Shown here: positions 40,694-54,791 of the stretch, piece after piece
How the letters are laid out: each line of letters begins with the position of its first letter
How positions within the stretch are numbered: the stretch's first letter is position 1
NCBI RefSeq assembly: GCF_988242995.1
Contig: NZ_OZ547043.1
Strand: one strand, 5' to 3'
DNA: 64,000 nucleotides
Program-made: the position numbers and the translations under genes
The notes under the pieces: generated by a model
What the model was told of the DNA's origin: nothing
Databases searched by the model: none
What the model saw: the letters and a program-made list of their open reading frames with translations, nothing else

Positions 40694-41731
40694 ATGTTTT
40701 CCGCATTGCGCCACCGTACCGCTGCCCTGGCGCTCGGCGTATGCTTTATTCTCCCCGTACACGCCTCGTCACCTAAACCTGGCGATTTTGCTAATACTCA
40801 GGCACGACATATTGCTACTTTCTTTCCGGGACGCATGACCGGAACTCCTGCAGAAATGTTATCTGCCGATTATATTCGCCAACAGTTTCAGCAAATGGGT
40901 TATCGCAGTGATATTCGGACATTTAATAGTCGGTATATTTATACCGCCCGCGATAATCGCAAGAGCTGGCATAACGTGACGGGAAGTACGGTGATTGCCG
41001 CTCATGAAGGCAAAGCGCCGCAGCAGATCATCATTATGGCGCATCTGGATACATACGCCCCGCTGAGCGATGCTGACGCCGATGCCAATCTCGGCGGGCT
41101 GACGTTACAAGGAATGGATGATAACGCCGCAGGTTTAGGTGTCATGCTGGAACTGGCAGAACGCCTGAAAAATACGCCTACCGAGTATGGTATTCGATTT
41201 GTGGCGACCAGTGGTGAAGAGGAAGGGAAATTAGGTGCTGAGAATTTACTCAAGCGGATGAGTGACACCGAAAAGAAAAATACGCTGCTGGTGATTAATC
41301 TCGATAACTTAATTGTTGGCGATAAATTGTATTTCAACAGCGGTGTAAAAACCCCTGAAGCAGTAAGGAAATTAACGCGCGACAGGGCGCTGGCAATTGC
41401 GCGTAGTCATGGAATTGCCGCAACGACCAATCCGGGTTTGAATAAAAATTATCCGAAGGGTACTGGCTGTTGTAATGACGCCGAAGTTTTCGACAAAGCC
41501 GGTATTGCCGTACTTTCGGTAGAAGCAACAAATTGGAATCTTGGGAATAAGGATGGTTATCAGCAACGCGCAAAAACAGCTGCATTCCCTGCGGGAAATA
41601 GCTGGCATGACGTAAGACTGGATAATCAACAACATATTGATAAGGCACTTCCTGGAAGAATAGAACGTCGCTGCCGTGACGTTATGCGGATAATGCTACC
41701 TCTGGTGAAGGAGTTGGCGAAGGCGTCTTGA
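40694..41731 (+). CDS. iap: Alkaline phosphatase isozyme conversion aminopeptidase (M28 family)
   Basis: 345-aa ORF with signal peptide; position adjacent to CRISPR array as in E. coli. Confidence 0.92.
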   Translation: MFSALRHRTAALALGVCFILPVHASSPKPGDFANTQARHIATFFPGRMTGTPAEMLSADYIRQQFQQMGYRSDIRTFNSRYIYTARDNRKSWHNVTGSTVIAAHEGKAPQQIIIMAHLDTYAPLSDADADANLGGLTLQGMDDNAAGLGVMLELAERLKNTPTEYGIRFVATSGEEEGKLGAENLLKRMSDTEKKNTLLVINLDNLIVGDKLYFNSGVKTPEAVRKLTRDRALAIARSHGIAATTNPGLNKNYPKGTGCCNDAEVFDKAGIAVLSVEATNWNLGNKDGYQQRAKTAAFPAGNSWHDVRLDNQQHIDKALPGRIERRCRDVMRIMLPLVKELAKAS

Positions 41732-41812: not shown

Positions 41813-43000
41813 CGGTTTATCCCCGCTGACGCGGGGAACACGCTTTTCCCCACGCGTCCAGATCTTCGACTGGCGGTTTATCCCCGCTGGCGCGGGGAAC
41901 ACTCATTAAATTGTTTTTCCCGATCCCAGCTCTGCGGTTTATCCCCGCTGGCGCGGGGAACACCTGGAGCGCAGAAAGTTTGATATCGAAAATGCCGGTT
42001 TATCCCCGCTGGCGCGGGGAACACAGTTAACAACCCGCGCCGAACAAGCCCGACAACGGTTTATCCCCGCTGGCGCGGGGAACACCAGGTTCGTAAAGGT
42101 GAACACGGCACGACGGCCGGTTTATCCCCGCTGGCGCGGGGAACACGCGTCGCCATTCTATTAGCTTTTCCTCATCACCGGTTTATCCCCGCTGGCGCGG
42201 GGAACACCCGACAATCTCCGCCTCCAGTCGGTCGACCTGCGGTTTATCCCCGCTGGCGCGGGGAACACTGTGCCCGACTGCGTGCCGCGTCGAGCGCCTG
42301 CGGTTTATCCCCGCTGGCGCGGGGAACACTTCGCCGCCATCATCCTGTGGTGCCAGTTGACCGGTTTATCCCCGCTGGCGCGGGGAACACATACCGCAGC
42401 AAATTACGGTTCCAGAAACGCGCGGTTTATCCCCGCTGGCGCGGGGAACACTGACACGTTAAACGGTGCGTTGTCGTCGCTGTCGGTTTATCCCCGCTGG
42501 CGCGGGGAACACCCTGCCGCCCCCTTTAGCCCATATGGGGGCGGCGGTTTATCCCCGCTGGCGCGGGGAACACTTCAACATTACGAAACGGGATCACGCC
42601 GCTGACGGTTTATCCCCGCTGGCGCGGGGAACACCGGCTCCGCGTCGACATAAAAGTCCTCGGGATCGGTTTATCCCCGCTGGCGCGGGGAACACATATT
42701 TCGCCCCGTCACGCTGAATCAGCCAGCCGGTTTATCCCCGCTGGCGCGGGGAACACTCGCTTTTAAAGCGCCGGAGGAAAGTAAGCTCCGGTTTATCCCC
42801 GCTGGCGCGGGGAACACTAGCATAAATTACCCGATCAGATCGCGGACATCGGTTTATCCCCGCTGGCGCGGGGAACACTCGATCAAAAATTTACAACCAA
42901 AGGCTTCAACCGGTTTATCCCCGCTGGCGCGGGGAACACTCCCCGGTATCAGAAATAATTCCCTGCTCGATCGGTTTATCCCCGCTGGCGCGGGGAACAC
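41813..43000 (-). CRISPR. Type I-E CRISPR array: 20 repeats of 29 bp, 19 spacers of 32 bp, period 61 bp; transcribed from the cas2-proximal leader
   Basis: Repeat CGGTTTATCCCCGCTGGCGCGGGGAACAC at 41813, 41874, ... 42972; leader-distal repeat is degenerate (CTGACG instead of CTGGCG). Confidence 0.98.
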
Positions 43001-43096
43001 ACTAAGCATACATAACTGTTTTTAAACAAATTTATTCCGCATCAACAATCTACCAACTAAATTAAAACATTTCCTTATTTTTAAAGAACAGATAAC
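43001..43096 (-). promoter_or_regulatory. CRISPR leader (AT-rich, between cas2 and first repeat)
   Basis: AT-rich 96-bp spacer between cas2 stop and leader-proximal repeat. Confidence 0.8.
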
Positions 43097-48958: not shown

Positions 48959-51658
48959 TCAACCAACCTTGCCAGTCAATCCTTCCATAGCCGAATACCC
49001 GCAACTTTCGTCATCGGTAACTAAAATCACGTTTGCCATCTCCGGATCTTTCCGCTGTTCAATGCACCACTGCCTGAACGCTTCCCCTTCCAGTAAAGAA
49101 AACTCATCCCGATGTTTTTTCCACCAGCTTCGACGCACTCTGACAACGCTCATTTCCCATGCGTGAGCACCGTTGGCATAAGGCTTCACCACACTGGCAA
49201 TACAGGTAGCCAGCCACAGGGAAACAGACTCCTCCGCCAGACGTGTCGACAGCTTTTCCGGAAGGTAATCGTTGATATTGGCGGCATAGCCAGGCCTGAA
49301 GTTCAGCACAAACTTTTTAGCCATTGCGCGATCGCAGTAATATTTGCCCACTTGCTCCTGCTCGCTGCGGGCAAATCCTTCCGGCATTACCACGTCCTCA
49401 CCGTAGACTGATTCAATAAGAAGGCGGGCTGCGTGTGGCATTTGAATAGCGCCTTGCTCACGCAGTACACGCTGCGTCAGCCAGATTCGTCCATGATCGG
49501 GATAGACATATGCACTGTTACGCATGGCACTGCCGAACCATTCGTCACCTGGAGCGTCGTCCCAGACGGGGGCCAGAATCAGCAATTCAGGAGGGGAACG
49601 CTCGTCTTTTCCGTCACGCTTTAACTGACCATTAATATCGCGGATATGCCGCTGTAATCGCCCCGCTCGCTGGATCAGCAAATCAACAGGGGCCAGGTCG
49701 GAAATCATTTCGTCCATATCGCAATCAACGCTCGACTCTAAGACCTGAGTACAAATGAGGACTTTTCCGGCACGCTGTGAGCTATCTTCTTTACCGAAGC
49801 GTGCCAGCGTTTCCGTTTCAATTCGCTGGCGATCGCTAAAAGCAAAGCGGCTATGAAACAGAGAAAGGCTGGAAGCAGGAATGACGCCGCGGGCAAGCAA
49901 CTGACGATAAACCTTAATAGCGTCATCGACAGAATTCCGGATCCAGGCGATGCATTTCCCCTGACTTACTGCCGATTCGATACGCGCAATACATTCTTGT
50001 TCGCTATGAAGCCAACCCACGCTCACGCTACGCTCAACGTCTTTGCGCGTCGCTACCCGGTGTGAATGCACATCGGATTTCGTAACGTGCGTCAGCCAGG
50101 GGTAATCATCCTTTTCCAGGAACGGAGCTTCTTGCTGGCCCTCTGTACCACGCGCAAAGGCAGCAACGAGTTTGTCGCACTGCTGTTGAGATAACGTGGC
50201 AGAAAGCAAAATGACGCTGTTTCCGCCACGCGCCTGCCGCTCGATCAGCCCTTCAAGAATGCATGACATGTAAGCGTCACAGGCATGGATCTCATCAGCC
50301 AGCAGGATTTTGTTACTCAGTCCCAGAAGCCGCAGATTATTATGTTTGAACGGCATCACAGCCATCATCGCCTGATCCAGCGTGCCGACGCCAATTTCAG
50401 CCAGTAGCGCCTTCTTGTTACTGTCGGCAAACCAGGCCGCACATCCCTGACTGAACGTTTGTTCATCCGGTTCTTCTGACCCGACTAAATCACCGGACCA
50501 GAGTGATTCATTAAAGCGGTCCATTAATGTTCGGGCACTGTGTGCCAGCACCAGGCTGGGGCGGGACTCTGGCGAATAGAAAGCAAGCCAGGTTTTGACC
50601 AGTCGATCGTACATGGCATTGGCCGTTGCCATTGTTGGCAGGCCAAAAAACAAACCCTGCGCTTTACCCGCAGCCATCAACCTGTGCGCCAGGATAAGCG
50701 CCGCTTCCGTTTTACCTGCGCCAGTCACATCTTCCAGAATAAATAACTGTGGCCCTGGCTGGCTGATATCCAGATCCAGCACCTTTTGCTGTAACGGTGT
50801 CGGATTCTCAATAAAAGGAAACAGCGTATTAATTCCGGTGAAAGGCGCGACTTTTGCTTTTAGAGGAAAGACGGTTAAGGCGTTTTGAGCCTGAACTAAA
50901 GTTTTCTGCCAGTAACCTTTATTATCCATTGGGTGTGCGACGCGTGGAAAAAATCGCGTTGACGAACCCGTCCAGTCTGCGAGCACGACGGTTGCAGAGA
51001 TATACCAGGAAAGGTGTTTTATAAGTTCAATGCCCTCATCATCATCCCAGAATGCGGGGATCTCTATGAGCGGAAACAGTGGTTTGATTTCAAGAAGAAA
51101 ATCTCGCGCGGCAGCTTTGTCTTCAGGCAGAAAATTATCCAGTTCATCAATACGGTCAGGCGGGCGACCATGATGCCCGGTAGTTATGGGCATCCACATC
51201 GCTATTACACGTGTAAGTTTGCGGGGAGAGAGTGAAGAGGAAGGAAGTAACTCCTGACATTCACTTAAATAATGATGCCACAACCAGTAGCCCAGCGTTG
51301 AATGAGAGATTTTTTCGTAATTTTTTCTAGCACCTTCCGGAACCCTGAGTTTCGGGTGCAGGTAAAGTTGCTGAAATGAGCGGGCAAATTTACCAGTATC
51401 GTGCCAGCACAACAACCAGGCGAAAAATTGAGCCGCCTGTTCCTTGTCAGAAATCTCTAATTGACGAAAATAGTCAGCCAGTCCGAAGCAATTGCTTTTA
51501 ACCATTAAATAGCCCATCGCGGCTACATCCAGCGAATGCCAGCAAAGAAGGTGATAGTCGTCGCCCCCGTCTTTCTCGCCGCGTCGGGTTTTTCCCCAGA
51601 AATCAAAAAAAGTCACAATATTTTTATCCTTCAGTAAACTTAAAGGATATTTACGCAT
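48959..51658 (-). CDS. cas3: Cas3 nuclease/helicase (HD domain + SF2 helicase)
   Basis: 899-aa ORF; N-terminal HD region (HSLDVA, WHDTGK), helicase motifs GAGKTEAA and DEIH. Confidence 0.93.
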   Translation of the reverse strand: MRKYPLSLLKDKNIVTFFDFWGKTRRGEKDGGDDYHLLCWHSLDVAAMGYLMVKSNCFGLADYFRQLEISDKEQAAQFFAWLLCWHDTGKFARSFQQLYLHPKLRVPEGARKNYEKISHSTLGYWLWHHYLSECQELLPSSSLSPRKLTRVIAMWMPITTGHHGRPPDRIDELDNFLPEDKAAARDFLLEIKPLFPLIEIPAFWDDDEGIELIKHLSWYISATVVLADWTGSSTRFFPRVAHPMDNKGYWQKTLVQAQNALTVFPLKAKVAPFTGINTLFPFIENPTPLQQKVLDLDISQPGPQLFILEDVTGAGKTEAALILAHRLMAAGKAQGLFFGLPTMATANAMYDRLVKTWLAFYSPESRPSLVLAHSARTLMDRFNESLWSGDLVGSEEPDEQTFSQGCAAWFADSNKKALLAEIGVGTLDQAMMAVMPFKHNNLRLLGLSNKILLADEIHACDAYMSCILEGLIERQARGGNSVILLSATLSQQQCDKLVAAFARGTEGQQEAPFLEKDDYPWLTHVTKSDVHSHRVATRKDVERSVSVGWLHSEQECIARIESAVSQGKCIAWIRNSVDDAIKVYRQLLARGVIPASSLSLFHSRFAFSDRQRIETETLARFGKEDSSQRAGKVLICTQVLESSVDCDMDEMISDLAPVDLLIQRAGRLQRHIRDINGQLKRDGKDERSPPELLILAPVWDDAPGDEWFGSAMRNSAYVYPDHGRIWLTQRVLREQGAIQMPHAARLLIESVYGEDVVMPEGFARSEQEQVGKYYCDRAMAKKFVLNFRPGYAANINDYLPEKLSTRLAEESVSLWLATCIASVVKPYANGAHAWEMSVVRVRRSWWKKHRDEFSLLEGEAFRQWCIEQRKDPEMANVILVTDDESCGYSAMEGLTGKVG

Positions 51659-51825
51659 ATATTAAAAATTATCTGTGATATATATCGTTCAATAAAATAT
51701 TTACATTATGAATAATCAAATAATTTTCATCAGTAATATATATGAATAATAAACATAGGCATAATATTCACATAAACAATATAAATTAAAAAAGGGTGCA
51801 GGAGACCAAACCATCACAATTCAAT

Positions 51826-51847
51826 ACGCGGGGTTTTACCCCCGCGT
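51826..51847 (-). other. GC-rich hairpin immediately downstream of hok-like ORF; possible terminator or mRNA 3' fold-back element
   Basis: ACGCGGGG-TTTTAC-CCCCGCGT, 8-bp perfect stem. Confidence 0.35.
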
Positions 51848-51852
51848 GGTGG

Positions 51853-52005
51853 CTACTTCTTCGATTCGTAAGCGAGAACTGCCTTAAACTCCATACCACG
51901 TTCTCTGATACTCAACTCACACAACGAGTCGCCTACCATCAGCGTGAATCCCAGTACTGTACAACACAGTACGATGATTGCCACAAGGGCATATTTTGTC
52001 AGCAT
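51853..52005 (-). CDS. Hok/Gef-family type I toxin (small membrane peptide, HokE-like)
   Basis: 50-codon ORF absent from ORF track: [50 protein letters not shown]; GGGAGG RBS; TM helix plus conserved Cys; resembles Hok peptides from memory. Confidence 0.65.
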
Positions 52006-52270
52006 GTCTTGCCTCCCTGCAAAGAAGAGACTAACATTCGAATTGCTTAGGTTCGAACGCTGGCCTCAGGTTGATAGAAATATCGCCTGGGGCTTTTGTC
52101 CATCTGGAACCTCGCGAATGCTTAACGCCAGACAGCCTCAAGCACCCAACGCCATTCTATACTTGATAATTCTTCCAGCGGCGTTCACGTTTAAAATCAG
52201 GAATGCTGCTCGCAAAATAAAAACGCCCCCATCTTTTCAGACAGAGACGTTTATTAAGCGGTACGATATT

Positions 52271-53005
52271 TTACCCTTCGTGCAGCCCACATTCCCTTTT
52301 TAAGCCAAAGAAACGCGTTTCTTCTTCCGCCATGCCGGGTTCCCATTTACGGGTTGTATGGGTATCACCGACGGATAAATATCCTTCGTCCCATAATGGA
52401 TGATATTTCAGGCCATGTTTTTGCAGATACTGATATATCGTTCGGTTATCCCAGTCGATAATCGGCAGCACTTTAAATACGCCACGCTGAATTGCCAGCA
52501 CCGGTAAATTGGCGCGACTGCCGGATTGTTCGCGGCGCAGGCCAGCAAACCACGTTTGCGCATTCAGTTCTTTCAGCGCCCGGTTCATCGGTTCGACTTT
52601 GTTGATGTCATTGTACTTTTCAATGCCTTCAACACCCTGCTCCCACAGTTTGCCGTAGCGCGCTTCCTGCCAGGCGGCGCTTTCGGTAGCGCGGTACACT
52701 TTCAGGTTGAGCTTGAGTTTGTCCGTTAACTCGTCAATAAAGCGGTAGGTTTCCGGGAACAGATAACCCGTATCGGTCAGGATCACCGGGATATCCGGGT
52801 GAATCTGATTCACCAGATGCAGGCTCACCGCCGCCTGAATGCCGAAACTGGAAGAAAGTACATATTCACCGGGCAGATTATCCAGCGCCCAGGCAACGCG
52901 GCCTTCAGCATCCAGTTTTTCCAGTTCGGCGTTAGTTTCTGCCAGCGCCAGAATGCGATCTACCTTCGGCAGTTCGTTCAGGGCGTTTAGATCGAGTTTG
53001 GACAT
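52271..53005 (-). CDS. cysH: Phosphoadenosine phosphosulfate (PAPS) reductase
   Basis: ORF 52271..53158; start taken at [14 protein letters not shown] (244 aa); C-terminal ECGLH motif. Confidence 0.95.
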
Positions 53006-53026
53006 AGATTCCTCACTGTTTGCCTT

Positions 53027-53062
53027 GCCTGATGCGACGCTCACGCGTCTTATCAGGCCTAC
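53027..53062. repeat. REP (repetitive extragenic palindromic) element between cysI and cysH
   Basis: GCCTGATGCGACGCTCACGCGTCTTATCAGGCCTAC matches the E. coli REP consensus family. Confidence 0.75.
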
Positions 53063-53078
53063 AAGACCGGGCTGATGG

Positions 53079-54791
53079 TTAATCCCACAAATCGCGCGCC
53101 GGATCGAGCACCGGGCGAATGATGCCCGCACGCACCGTAAAGTCGCCGAAGCCTTCACCCGCTTCGCGCTCTTTCGCCCAGCGCCCTATCAGTTCATCAA
53201 GCGACGCCAGGATTTCCGGCTCGGTGATGTTTTCTTTATACATCCGTGGGATACGTGTCCCAATGCGGTTGCCGCCAAGATGCAGGTTGTAGCGACCCGG
53301 CGCTTTACCCACCAGGCCCACTTCCGCCAGCATCGCGCGACCACAACCGTTCGGGCAGCCTGTTACACGCATCACGATATGCTCATCGCTGACACCATGT
53401 TTCGCCATTAAATTATCGATGTTGTCGATAAAAGACGGCAGGAAACGCTCGGCTTCGGCCATCGCCAGCGGGCAAGTCGGGAATGACACGCAGGCCATTG
53501 AGTTTTCACGCTGCGGCGTGACGGCATTCATTAACCCGCTCTCTTTGGCGATCTTCTCGATCTTCGCTTTCTCGCTTTCCGGCACACCGGCGATGATCAG
53601 ATTCTGGTTCGCCGTAATGCGGAAATCACCTTTGTGGATCTTCGCGATCTCCAGCAGGCCAGTTTTCAGCGGACGCCCCGGATAATCAAGGATGCGACCA
53701 TTTTCGATAAACAGCGTCAGGTGCCAGTTATCATCAATGCCCTTAACCCAACCAATACGATCGCCGCGTCCGGTAAACTCATACGGACGGATCGGTTCAA
53801 ATTTGATCCCCGCGCGACGCTCCACTTCCGCTTTAAACGTCTCAACCCCCACGCGCTCCAGCGTGTATTTGGTTTTGGCATTTTTACGATCGGTACGGTT
53901 ACCCCAGTCGCGCTGAGTCGTCACGACGGCTTCTGCCACCGCCAGCGTATGCTCCAGCGGCAGATAACCAAACTCACTCGCCGTGCGGGCGTAGGTTTTC
54001 TTGTTGCCGTGCTCGATGGAAAGCCCACCGCCCACCAGCAGGTTAAAGCCCACCAGCTTGCCGTTTTCGGCGATCGCCACGAAGTTCATGTCGTTGGCGT
54101 GCAGATCGATATCGTTCTGCGGCGGGATCACTACCGTGGTTTTGAATTTACGCGGCAAATAAGTCTGACCGAGGATCGGTTCTTCATCGGTGGTGGCGAC
54201 TTTTTCCTGATCGAGCCAGATCTCCGCATACGCGCGGGTACGCGGCAGCAGATGTTCAGATATTTTCTTCGCCCATTCATAGGATTCCGCGTGCAGCTGC
54301 GACTCGTAAGGGTTCGAGGTACAGAGTACGTTACGGTTCATGTCGTTGGCGGTAGCCAGCGCATCAAGACCGACTGAGTGCAGCATCTGGTGCACCGGTT
54401 TGACGTTCTTTTTCAGAATGCCATGGAACTGGAACGTCTGGCGGTTGGTCAGGCGAATGCTGCCATAAATGGTGTTTTCACCGGCAAATTTATCGATCGC
54501 CTGCCACTGTTTGGTGGTAATCACCCCACCCGGCAGACGACAGCGCAACAGCATTGCATGACGTGGCTCCAGCTTCTGTTCAGCACGTTCAGCGCGGATG
54601 TCGCGGTCATCCTGCTGATACATGCCGTGGAAGCGGATCAGCAGGAAGTTGTCGCCCTTAAAACCACCGGTCAGACCGTCGTTTAAATCTTCCGCAATGG
54701 TGCCGCGCAGGTAGTTGCTTTCAAGCTTCATGCGCTCGGCGTCTGTCAGTTTTCCTTCGACCACTAAAGGCCCTGGATGTTTTTCGCTCAT
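53079..54791 (-). CDS. cysI: Sulfite reductase (NADPH) hemoprotein beta subunit
   Basis: 570-aa ORF; siroheme/Fe-S cysteine cluster region; synteny. Confidence 0.95.

Follow-up and report, generated by a model that had tools for sequence, protein, structure and literature searches.

Between cysH and cas3 of the 64-kb stretch of DNA analysed here (hereafter, the window), a first-pass annotation had noticed a short open reading frame (ORF) resembling the Hok toxins beside an extremely AT-rich segment, and had proposed a hok/sok-type locus abutting the cas3 promoter. This raises three questions, namely, whether the ORF belongs to a genuine type I toxin-antitoxin locus with an antisense RNA and a mok-like frame, whether such a locus would still work, and whether its position means anything for the neighbouring CRISPR-Cas genes. 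Our answer to the first is that the region is very probably an intact hokX/sokX, a chromosomal type I toxin-antitoxin locus that would be expected, by homology, to operate like hok/sok of plasmid R1. This is directly supported by the membership of both the peptide and the leader in their families, by positional orthology with K-12 sokX, and by conserved, covarying RNA helices.

The ORF between cysH and cas3 encodes a Hok/Gef peptide

Since cysH (52271-53005), hokX and cas3 are all encoded on the minus strand, cysH lies upstream of hokX and cas3 downstream, and the order along transcription is cysH, the toxin gene, an AT-rich block and cas3 (Table 1). The hokX gene is thus located directly downstream of cysH on its iap/cas3 side, co-directional with cas3 and separated from it by a gap of about 130 nt. 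Its unit is bounded upstream by the intrinsic terminator of cysH. An Rfam match to ctRNA_p42d at 52212-52254 was discarded, as its 26.4 bits fall short of the gathering score of 50 and the hit is the hairpin of this terminator.

The 50-codon ORF with its GGGAGG ribosome-binding site is present exactly as the first-pass annotation had described it. ORFs of 50 codons are common, and 39 ORFs of at least 20 aa overlap positions 51000-53200, and one might suspect a chance open frame whose likeness to Hok is superficial. However, residues 5-46 of the translated peptide matched the whole of the Pfam model PF01848 HOK_GEF (positions 1-42 of 42, score 38.9, i-Evalue 6.3e-10), which was the HMM check that the proposed resemblance called for; the leader of the gene matched an Rfam family at an E-value of 1e-24 (next section); identical proteins are annotated in other genomes; and 39 of the 50 residues (78%) are identical to those of K-12 HokE. 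These results refute the chance-ORF reading, whose probability we regard as negligible.

HokX displays the hallmarks of the Hok/Gef family, as it is 50 aa long and has a single N-terminal hydrophobic stretch, followed by DSLCEL, which contains the conserved Cys of the xLCE motif, and by LAYESKK, with the C-terminal AYE. It can be aligned with HokE, HokA and HokC of K-12; however, it is far less similar to HokA, HokC, HokB and the Hok of R1 than to HokE, in agreement with the earlier impression that the peptide is most like HokE. In addition, it did not reach the curated cut-offs of NCBIfam NF007290, the HokA equivalog (53 bits against 89), or NF007279, a subfamily of the Hok family (39.5 bits against 73); HokX is therefore a distinct paralogue, neither HokA nor part of this curated subfamily. 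The identical peptide carries the generic PGAP name 'Hok/Gef family protein' (WP_000956458.1), and is annotated in E. coli strain MEW, in CFT073 and in an O157:H7 strain.

Table 1. Features of the hokX/sokX region in window coordinates.
Feature	Position	Strand	Details
cysH intrinsic terminator	52221..52252	-	terminator scan; stem of 14 pairs, then a T-run; bounds the hokX unit upstream
putative hokX -10 box TAGAAT	52154..52159	-	6 nt before the inferred +1 (G 52147); no good -35
inferred full-length hokX mRNA, ~360 nt	51788..52147	-	5' end at position 1 of Rfam sok; 3' end after fbi and U6
tac element GGGUGCUUGAGG	52136..52147	-	5' end; pairs with fbi in the MFE fold and the RNAalifold consensus
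ucb-like box AGCCCCAGG	52086..52094	-	complementary to mok-SD region CCUGAGGC and to tac CUUGAGGCU
Sok target (sokT) stem-loop	52027..52067	-	base formed by mok-SD GAGGC 52067-52063 and dcb-like GUCUC 52031-52027
sokX antisense RNA gene, 59 nt	52045..52103	+	K-12 sokX (b4701) mapped, 2 mismatches
Sok promoter	52009..52037	+	-35 TTGCCT 52009-52014, 17-nt spacer, -10 TAACAT 52032-52037, +1 G 52045
'mokX', putative upstream ORF, 12 codons	51999..52037	-	TGA 52001-51999 overlaps the hokX ATG in ATGCTGA
hokX Shine-Dalgarno GGGAGG	52012..52017	-	6 nt before ATG
hokX CDS	51853..52005	-	ATG start, 50 aa; hydrophobic stretch at residues ~6-24; conserved DSLCE...AYE motifs
3'-UTR GC hairpin	51826..51847	-	ACGCGGGG/TTTTAC/CCCCGCGT; perfect 8-bp stem, 6-nt loop
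fbi element GGUCUCCUGCACCC	51807-51794	-	followed by U6 tract 51793-51788
AT-rich block, ~16% GC	51659..51787	-	directly upstream of cas3; tied to the cas-E1 variant

An antisense sokX gene overlaps the hokX leader

If the ORF belongs to a hok/sok-type locus, an antisense Sok RNA is expected upstream of the toxin, as had been anticipated. The annotation of K-12 MG1655 places a small RNA, sokX (b4701), between cas3 and cysH, and this gene mapped with only two mismatches to the plus strand of the window, within the hokX leader (Table 1). Independently, the Rfam family RF01794 'sok' matched 52147-51990 along its full model (1-157) with 111.7 bits (gathering score, 59), and was the sole Rfam family found across the whole window. 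As this match lies on the hok-sense strand, the model describes the hok leader containing the complement of Sok, not the Sok RNA itself.

The predicted fold of SokX consists of a 5' tail followed by a terminator hairpin and CUUUUGU (-22.7 kcal/mol, z -3.6). In the promoter assigned to it, the start lies 7 nt past the -10 box, a position that fits the 5' end annotated for K-12 sokX, and the -35 box overlaps the Shine-Dalgarno sequence of hokX on the opposite strand; this layout is presumably the one found in the sok promoter of R1. At the level of sequence, the hok leader is thus overlapped by a cis-encoded antisense Sok gene with a promoter and a terminator of its own. In K-12, SokX has been seen by RNA-seq under all conditions (bioRxiv 10.1101/2024.06.20.599902).

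The hokX mRNA is predicted to fold like that of R1

A scan for consensus promoters returned nothing for hokX, sokX or cas3; its single site lies inside the hokX coding region (52002-51974), while 1.8 sites are expected by chance. Therefore, we assigned the promoters by homology and by eye. The putative -10 box of hokX is kept in eight Escherichia loci, and the length of the inferred mRNA is the same, 350-360 nt, across the related loci in 11 sequences. When folded, the 358-nt RNA had a minimum free energy (MFE) of -128.9 kcal/mol (z -3.3), with its 5' and 3' ends paired.

Besides the pairing of tac with fbi, the full-length MFE fold pairs the ucb-like box with 52070-52063; we named this box after the analogous one of the R1 model, for which PMC9841398 gives a summary. 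The YUNR motif CUAA lies in the sokT loop CCUAAGCAA (52051-52043), which is complementary to the 5' end of SokX (nt 1-7, 52045-52051), and the sokT stem-loop formed in the full-length as well as the 3'-truncated folds. When the last 34 nt were removed in silico, the predicted fold of the 5' end changed and the target hairpin stayed, and no clean tac/ucb helix appeared in the fold of this truncated RNA.

To the 3' side of the coding region, the GC hairpin that the first-pass annotation had pointed out is indeed present, with a perfect stem. It is the hairpin that hok mRNAs conserve in their 3' UTR, and is also a hot spot for insertion of IS186/IS421: IS421 has inserted within it in strain WG5, and IS186 adjoins hokC and hokE in K-12. 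It is not the end of the transcript, since fbi and the U6 tract follow about 35 nt further.

We aligned the window locus with 10 related full-length loci from Escherichia, Kluyvera, Pluralibacter and Enterobacter (n=11), comprising the hokX loci of E. coli E69 and Escherichia sp. E1V33, the hokX/E-like loci of Escherichia sp. ESNIH1, two Kluyvera genomospecies, Pluralibacter and an Enterobacter MAG, and three hokB loci. A contig scan with the conserved 16-mer GATATTTCTATCAACC yielded at least nine usable Enterobacteriaceae loci among the matches listed, most of which are chance matches in unrelated phyla. The tac/fbi helix has 10 pairs that are 100% paired across the 11 loci, with compensatory changes at two of them, including U-A to C-G and G-C to A-U; sokT has 13 pairs that are 94% paired, three with compensatory changes; and the 3'-UTR GC hairpin has seven pairs that are 98.6% paired. 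Taken together, 97.2% of the cells of the four named helices are paired, a share that falls to 41-58% if the 3' partners are shifted by 1-3 columns, and six pairs carry compensatory changes. RNAalifold recovered tac/fbi, a 5' hairpin, a hairpin mirroring the Sok terminator, the target stem-loop and the 3' hairpin, and its consensus contains 20 pairs with double changes. With so few sequences, which are moreover related, this covariation supports the structure and is no proof of it. The structure of the hokX RNA agrees with the model that Le Rhun et al. 2022 (PMC9841398) summarise for R1.

A short upstream ORF may stand in for mok

The earlier annotation had also expected a mok-like frame overlapping the toxin gene, and this held only in part. 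A long frame is absent, as the +1 frame of the hokX leader is closed by TAG at 52033-52031, before the hok Shine-Dalgarno sequence. Two other candidates were rejected, namely, a 36-aa ORF starting with TTG (52141-52031), which also ends before that sequence, and an 18-codon ORF starting with ATG at 52103, which ends in the loop of sokT. What was found is a 12-codon ORF ('mokX' in Table 1) that reads through the hok Shine-Dalgarno sequence and ends 7 nt into hokX, its stop codon overlapping the hokX start codon.

This ORF is identical in six other Escherichia hokX loci, that is, in all seven copies with the toxin. Its ATG at 52037 is invariant in the 12 related loci, and in 11 of them the frame that it opens passes through the hok Shine-Dalgarno sequence. 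Where the frame ends depends on the locus: in hokX and Kluyvera it stops at the hok start, and in hokE, ESNIH1 and Enterobacter it is in register with hok, while two of the three hokB loci have a long out-of-frame overlap, like mokB, and in the third the frame stops 4 nt into hokB. The canonical start of mok, an ATG located 6-7 nt after GAGGC(C), exists in hokB, Kluyvera genomosp. 1 and Pluralibacter; Escherichia hokX has TCG instead, and none of the Escherichia hokX loci sampled has ATG, GTG or TTG at the canonical distance after the box.

This bears on the second question, since hokX/sokX might be what it is by descent and yet be silent in vivo, a tolerated relic that has lost the canonical mok start and has a weak promoter. 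The lack of a start codon at the canonical distance throughout the Escherichia hokX sampled speaks for such a relic, and the upstream ATG is not preceded by its own Shine-Dalgarno sequence; activation of translation through it might therefore be weak or absent, which leaves room for this view. Furthermore, the ATG coincides with positions 4-6 of the Sok -10 box on the opposite strand, and conservation of the box could explain that of the ATG without any translation. However, this -10 box has a C where the consensus has an A, thereby preserving the ATG, which suggests selection on the ATG itself, and the upstream frame is open through the hok Shine-Dalgarno sequence in 11 of the 12 loci, whatever its register. 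The 12-codon ORF could be a minimal mok, coupled to hokX either by termination-reinitiation or by opening of the Shine-Dalgarno sequence.

Distribution of hokX/sokX in E. coli

In most E. coli, hokX/sokX is found just downstream of cysH. Of 5426 complete E. coli genomes, 5425 contain some part of the region, and about 41% (2239/5425) have the full arrangement, taken as coverage of at least 80% of the query. In strain MEW, 701 bases of the region are 100% identical to the window, and the Hok/Gef ORF also lies between cas3 and cysH. An identical hokX is found in CFT073, which has no cas genes and in which hokX directly adjoins iap; the cas-less Escherichia sp. E1V33 has likewise retained an identical hokX next to iap. 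K-12, which carries cas-E2, has lost the toxin: homology breaks off precisely at the ATG of hokX, and only the promoter, the leader and sokX are left. In one further genome, neither hokX nor cas3 has been retained.

The locus is known already, as it has been named and published, and standard pipelines annotate hokX/sokX. hokX, which belongs to the cysH-iap region, was originally noted in E. coli B (PMC7232551). Almendros et al. (mBio 2014, PMC3903273) mapped a 'hok sok system' to the interval from cas3 to cysH and used it as a marker of the CRISPR-I locus; by their account, only strains with cas-E2, the K-12 variant of the cas genes, lack it. In uropathogenic isolates hok and sokX adjoin cysH in 90%, the rest having sokX alone, like K-12 (PMC12736100). 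Therefore, the juxtaposition with cas3 that had been singled out as interesting is real, but it has been reported before (PMC3903273, PMC12736100), and the linkage is not obligate.

These distributions can also be held up to the idea of a silent relic. A passage in PMC7232551, citing Pedersen and Gerdes 1999, describes all five hok loci of K-12 as inactive, and it follows that a chromosomal hok locus is not necessarily functional; in addition, hokX is often destroyed by insertion of IS186/IS421 or by deletion, with no evident cost. On the other hand, the 50-aa peptide is identical in lineages as distant as the window strain, CFT073 and O157:H7, the regulatory elements are all intact, and covariation of the helices extends across genera. 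We therefore consider silence of the locus in vivo a serious but unlikely alternative to an operating hokX/sokX.

The AT-rich block belongs to the cas-E1 module

The segment 51659-51800, which had been described as extremely AT-rich and immediately upstream of cas3, has a GC content of 17.6%, compared with 53.1% for the whole window. The 142-nt stretch with the lowest GC content of the 64 kb lies here, with only 0.04% of the 142-nt windows being equally low, all of them in this segment, and the AT-rich block ends at the ATG of cas3 (51658, minus strand). Homology with the cas-less CFT073 and Escherichia sp. E1V33 extends across fbi and the U6 tract but no further than 51787/51786, and the block is absent from the cas-less and cas-E2 genomes. 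Given this break at 51787, and since the block is found only with the cas3 of cas-E1, we consider the block a module separate from hokX.

The cas variant of the window is cas-E1, as, among the primers of Almendros et al., cas3E1-R has an exact match at 51558-51577 and cysH-F a match at 52205-52225, while the E2 primer has no match in the window. According to these authors, an intergenic segment, IG4, occurs only with cas-E1 (PMC3903273), and the AT-rich block is probably this IG4. The block presumably contains the promoter of cas3. As for the suggestion that it is bound by H-NS, such binding might be expected from the base composition of the block (16% GC); the high-affinity H-NS motif TCGATAAATT has one match with two mismatches there, which is too weak to count for or against binding. 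In K-12, whose region upstream of cas3 is different, deletion of hns raised the activity of the cas3 promoter only slightly (PMC7019758).

The third question is whether hokX/sokX is wired to the CRISPR-Cas system of type I-E, either as an addiction module of cas-E1 or through read-through from the hokX promoter into cas3. Such a link could draw on the short distance between the two co-directional genes, on the arrangement being shared by some 41% of complete E. coli genomes, and on the U6 tract not being preceded by a strong local terminator hairpin. A precedent of a kind exists in CreTA of Haloarcula, RNA toxin-antitoxin modules that safeguard CRISPR-Cas, to which hokX/sokX is similar in being a toxin-antitoxin pair physically beside cas genes. 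However, in contrast to CreTA, hokX persists without cas, as the identical copies in CFT073 and E1V33 demonstrate, and cas persists without hokX, and the pair has neither a repeat-like antitoxin nor a dependence on Cascade. When we compared the window's own CRISPR repeat with 51600-52300 to find a CreA-like mimic of the repeat, the best score, located in the GC hairpin, was 10, which was equalled or beaten by 17 of 200 shuffles. As shuffles match this score and the hairpin concerned occurs in all hok paralogues, we see neither a remnant of a CRISPR repeat nor a CreA-like element here.

Further evidence against wiring comes from the cas-E2 strains such as K-12, which keep cas without the toxin (PMC3903273), from the genome that is devoid of both cas3 and hokX, and from the homology break at 51787, which points to separate evolutionary modules. 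Since hokX and cas separate freely and no CreTA-like element is present, a functional link is unlikely, and we consider wiring of the locus to CRISPR-Cas extremely improbable. Cas3 supply is reported to limit CRISPR interference in E. coli. A looser version of the link, in which, in cas-E1 strains, read-through from hokX into cas3 or a changed occupancy of the AT-rich promoter would let hokX/SokX RNA modulate this supply, also appears highly improbable to us.

Comparison with known hok loci

The window locus is the known hokX/sokX of E. coli: it occupies the same site downstream of cysH, its leader and sokX are nearly identical to those of K-12 (2/59 mismatches), its peptide is identical to that of CFT073 and O157:H7, and its cas genes are of the cas-E1 variant reported to co-occur with the system. 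Compared with the remnant of hokX in K-12 and the copy hit by IS421 in WG5, the window copy is complete; otherwise, there is no real difference.

The closest paralogue is hokE/sokE of K-12 (b4415/b4835), which is located at another chromosomal site, ybdK-entD, and has the same leader architecture, invariant upstream ATG and GC hairpin after the stop codon. Cross-regulation between hokX and hokE is unlikely, as their sokT sequences differ. The upstream ATG of hokE shares the frame of hok and thereby extends it by 12 codons at the N-terminus, while in hokX the spacer between the Shine-Dalgarno sequence and ATG is 4 nt shorter, and consequently the frame is shifted and stops on the hokX start codon. 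In K-12, hokE is cut off after the ORF by IS186.

hokX shares with hok/sok (parB) of plasmid R1 the toxin family, the pairing of the ends through tac and fbi, the ucb box and the stem formed by mok-SD and dcb, and in both systems the promoter of the antisense Sok overlaps the ribosome-binding site of hok. The two peptides are identical at only 23 of 52 residues. Mok of R1 has about 70 codons and overlaps most of hok, in contrast to the 12 codons ending on the hok start in hokX. Moreover, R1 is plasmid-borne, whereas hokX is chromosomal, where post-segregational killing has no obvious meaning.

A model of hokX/sokX and its implications

Based on these comparisons, the locus should operate as follows, with the transcript ends, the 3' processing, the translation of the upstream ORF and the toxicity being the parts that we infer. 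A weak promoter would give rise to a stable mRNA of ~360 nt (from 52147 to ~51788, minus strand), which pairing of tac with fbi would keep closed, and hence untranslatable and inaccessible to Sok. Slow trimming of the 3' end would remove fbi and let the RNA refold, so that the hairpin targeted by Sok and the upstream translation start would become exposed. The short, unstable SokX (52045-52103, plus strand) would then pair with the YUNR loop through its 5' tail, block the upstream reading frame and mark the duplex for cleavage. If SokX were lacking, ribosomes would read the 12-codon ORF through the ribosome-binding site of hokX and stop on its start codon, leading to translation of the 50-aa HokX, which would insert into the inner membrane and cause depolarisation.

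Beyond correct annotation, the significance of the locus is small. The window represents the ancestral type of arrangement, cas-E1 together with an intact hok sok system, and not the arrangement of K-12, and the boundaries between the two are clarified, with the hokX unit ending at 51788 and the AT-rich block being part of the cas-E1 module. The short upstream ORF in place of a canonical mok is the only mildly new point: in the hokX/hokE clade, a short or in-frame upstream ORF appears to replace the long mok of the R1 type, which is of modest interest for translational coupling in type I toxin-antitoxin systems.

The hokX promoter, leader and sokX are retained in K-12 without the toxin gene

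Alignment of the window with the corresponding locus of K-12 MG1655 indicates that homology between the two ends exactly at the ATG of hokX, the toxin gene of this type I toxin-antitoxin locus. K-12 has kept the hokX promoter, the whole leader and the antisense RNA gene sokX, and carries the upstream region of cas-E2, the K-12-type cas variant, in place of the toxin ORF, the GC hairpin and fbi, the 3'-end element of the inferred hokX mRNA. The upstream ORF is also longer in K-12 MG1655, with 26 codons. A CRP site has been reported for the cas3 promoter of K-12 (TATGAGCAGCATCGAA, PMC7019758), and it is located immediately beyond the point where the homology ends. The orphan hokX promoter of K-12 is directed toward cas3, with neither fbi nor the U-tract intervening.

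In the window, the annotated start codon of cas3-E1 (the cas3 of the window's own cas variant) is the ATG at 51658, in agreement with the PGAP annotations (899 aa), and no recognisable Shine-Dalgarno sequence was found in 51659-51680 (-). The CRISPR array contains 19 repeat cores (CGGTTTATCCCCGCTGGCGCGGGGAACAC) with a period of 61; a scan of the whole window at Rfam gathering thresholds reported no CRISPR-DR family, sok being the sole family. A sub-threshold Rfam match to ctRNA_p42d at 52212-52254 (-) reached 26.4 bits, where the gathering score is 50. This site is that of the cysH intrinsic terminator, and the best reading of the match is a terminator hairpin of generic type.

Coordinates of features in the window and in K-12 MG1655
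Feature	Position	Strand	Remarks
Sequence upstream of cas3-E1 start	51659-51680	-	pure AT, ACAGATAATTTTTAATAT
CRISPR array	window 41882-43010		between iap (40694-41731) and cas2
K-12 MG1655 counterpart	L003 1221-1578		aligned to window 52004-52270
Sok -10 box	52032-52037	+	TAACAT

Other rearrangements and the upstream frame

In WG5, which lacks the cas genes, an IS421 element (IS186 family) lies within the GC hairpin 3' of the hokX stop codon, at the equivalent of window 51831 (junction GCGGGGGTAAAACCC|CATAAGCGCTAAC...), severing fbi from hokX. This insertion is of the same type as those truncating hokC and hokE in K-12, and its breakpoint class (query 232-701) is shared by roughly 4 of the 30 genomes sampled at even spacing. 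NCCP 13918 has lost both hokX/sokX and cas3 through deletion, leaving about 250 bp, with a pseudogene fragment, between casA and cysH.

E. coli E69 harbors two hokB-like loci in tandem on the minus strand (at ~12540 and ~13035, ~495 bp between them). The upstream frame of one copy is cut to 14 codons, with its stop 4 nt into hokB, an arrangement similar to that of hokX. The upstream ATG itself (window 52037-52035, -) is invariant in the hokX/hokE/hokB clade and is complementary to the last three bases (positions 4-6) of the Sok -10 box; thus, this one trinucleotide is possibly under dual constraint, as a start codon and as part of a promoter on opposite strands.
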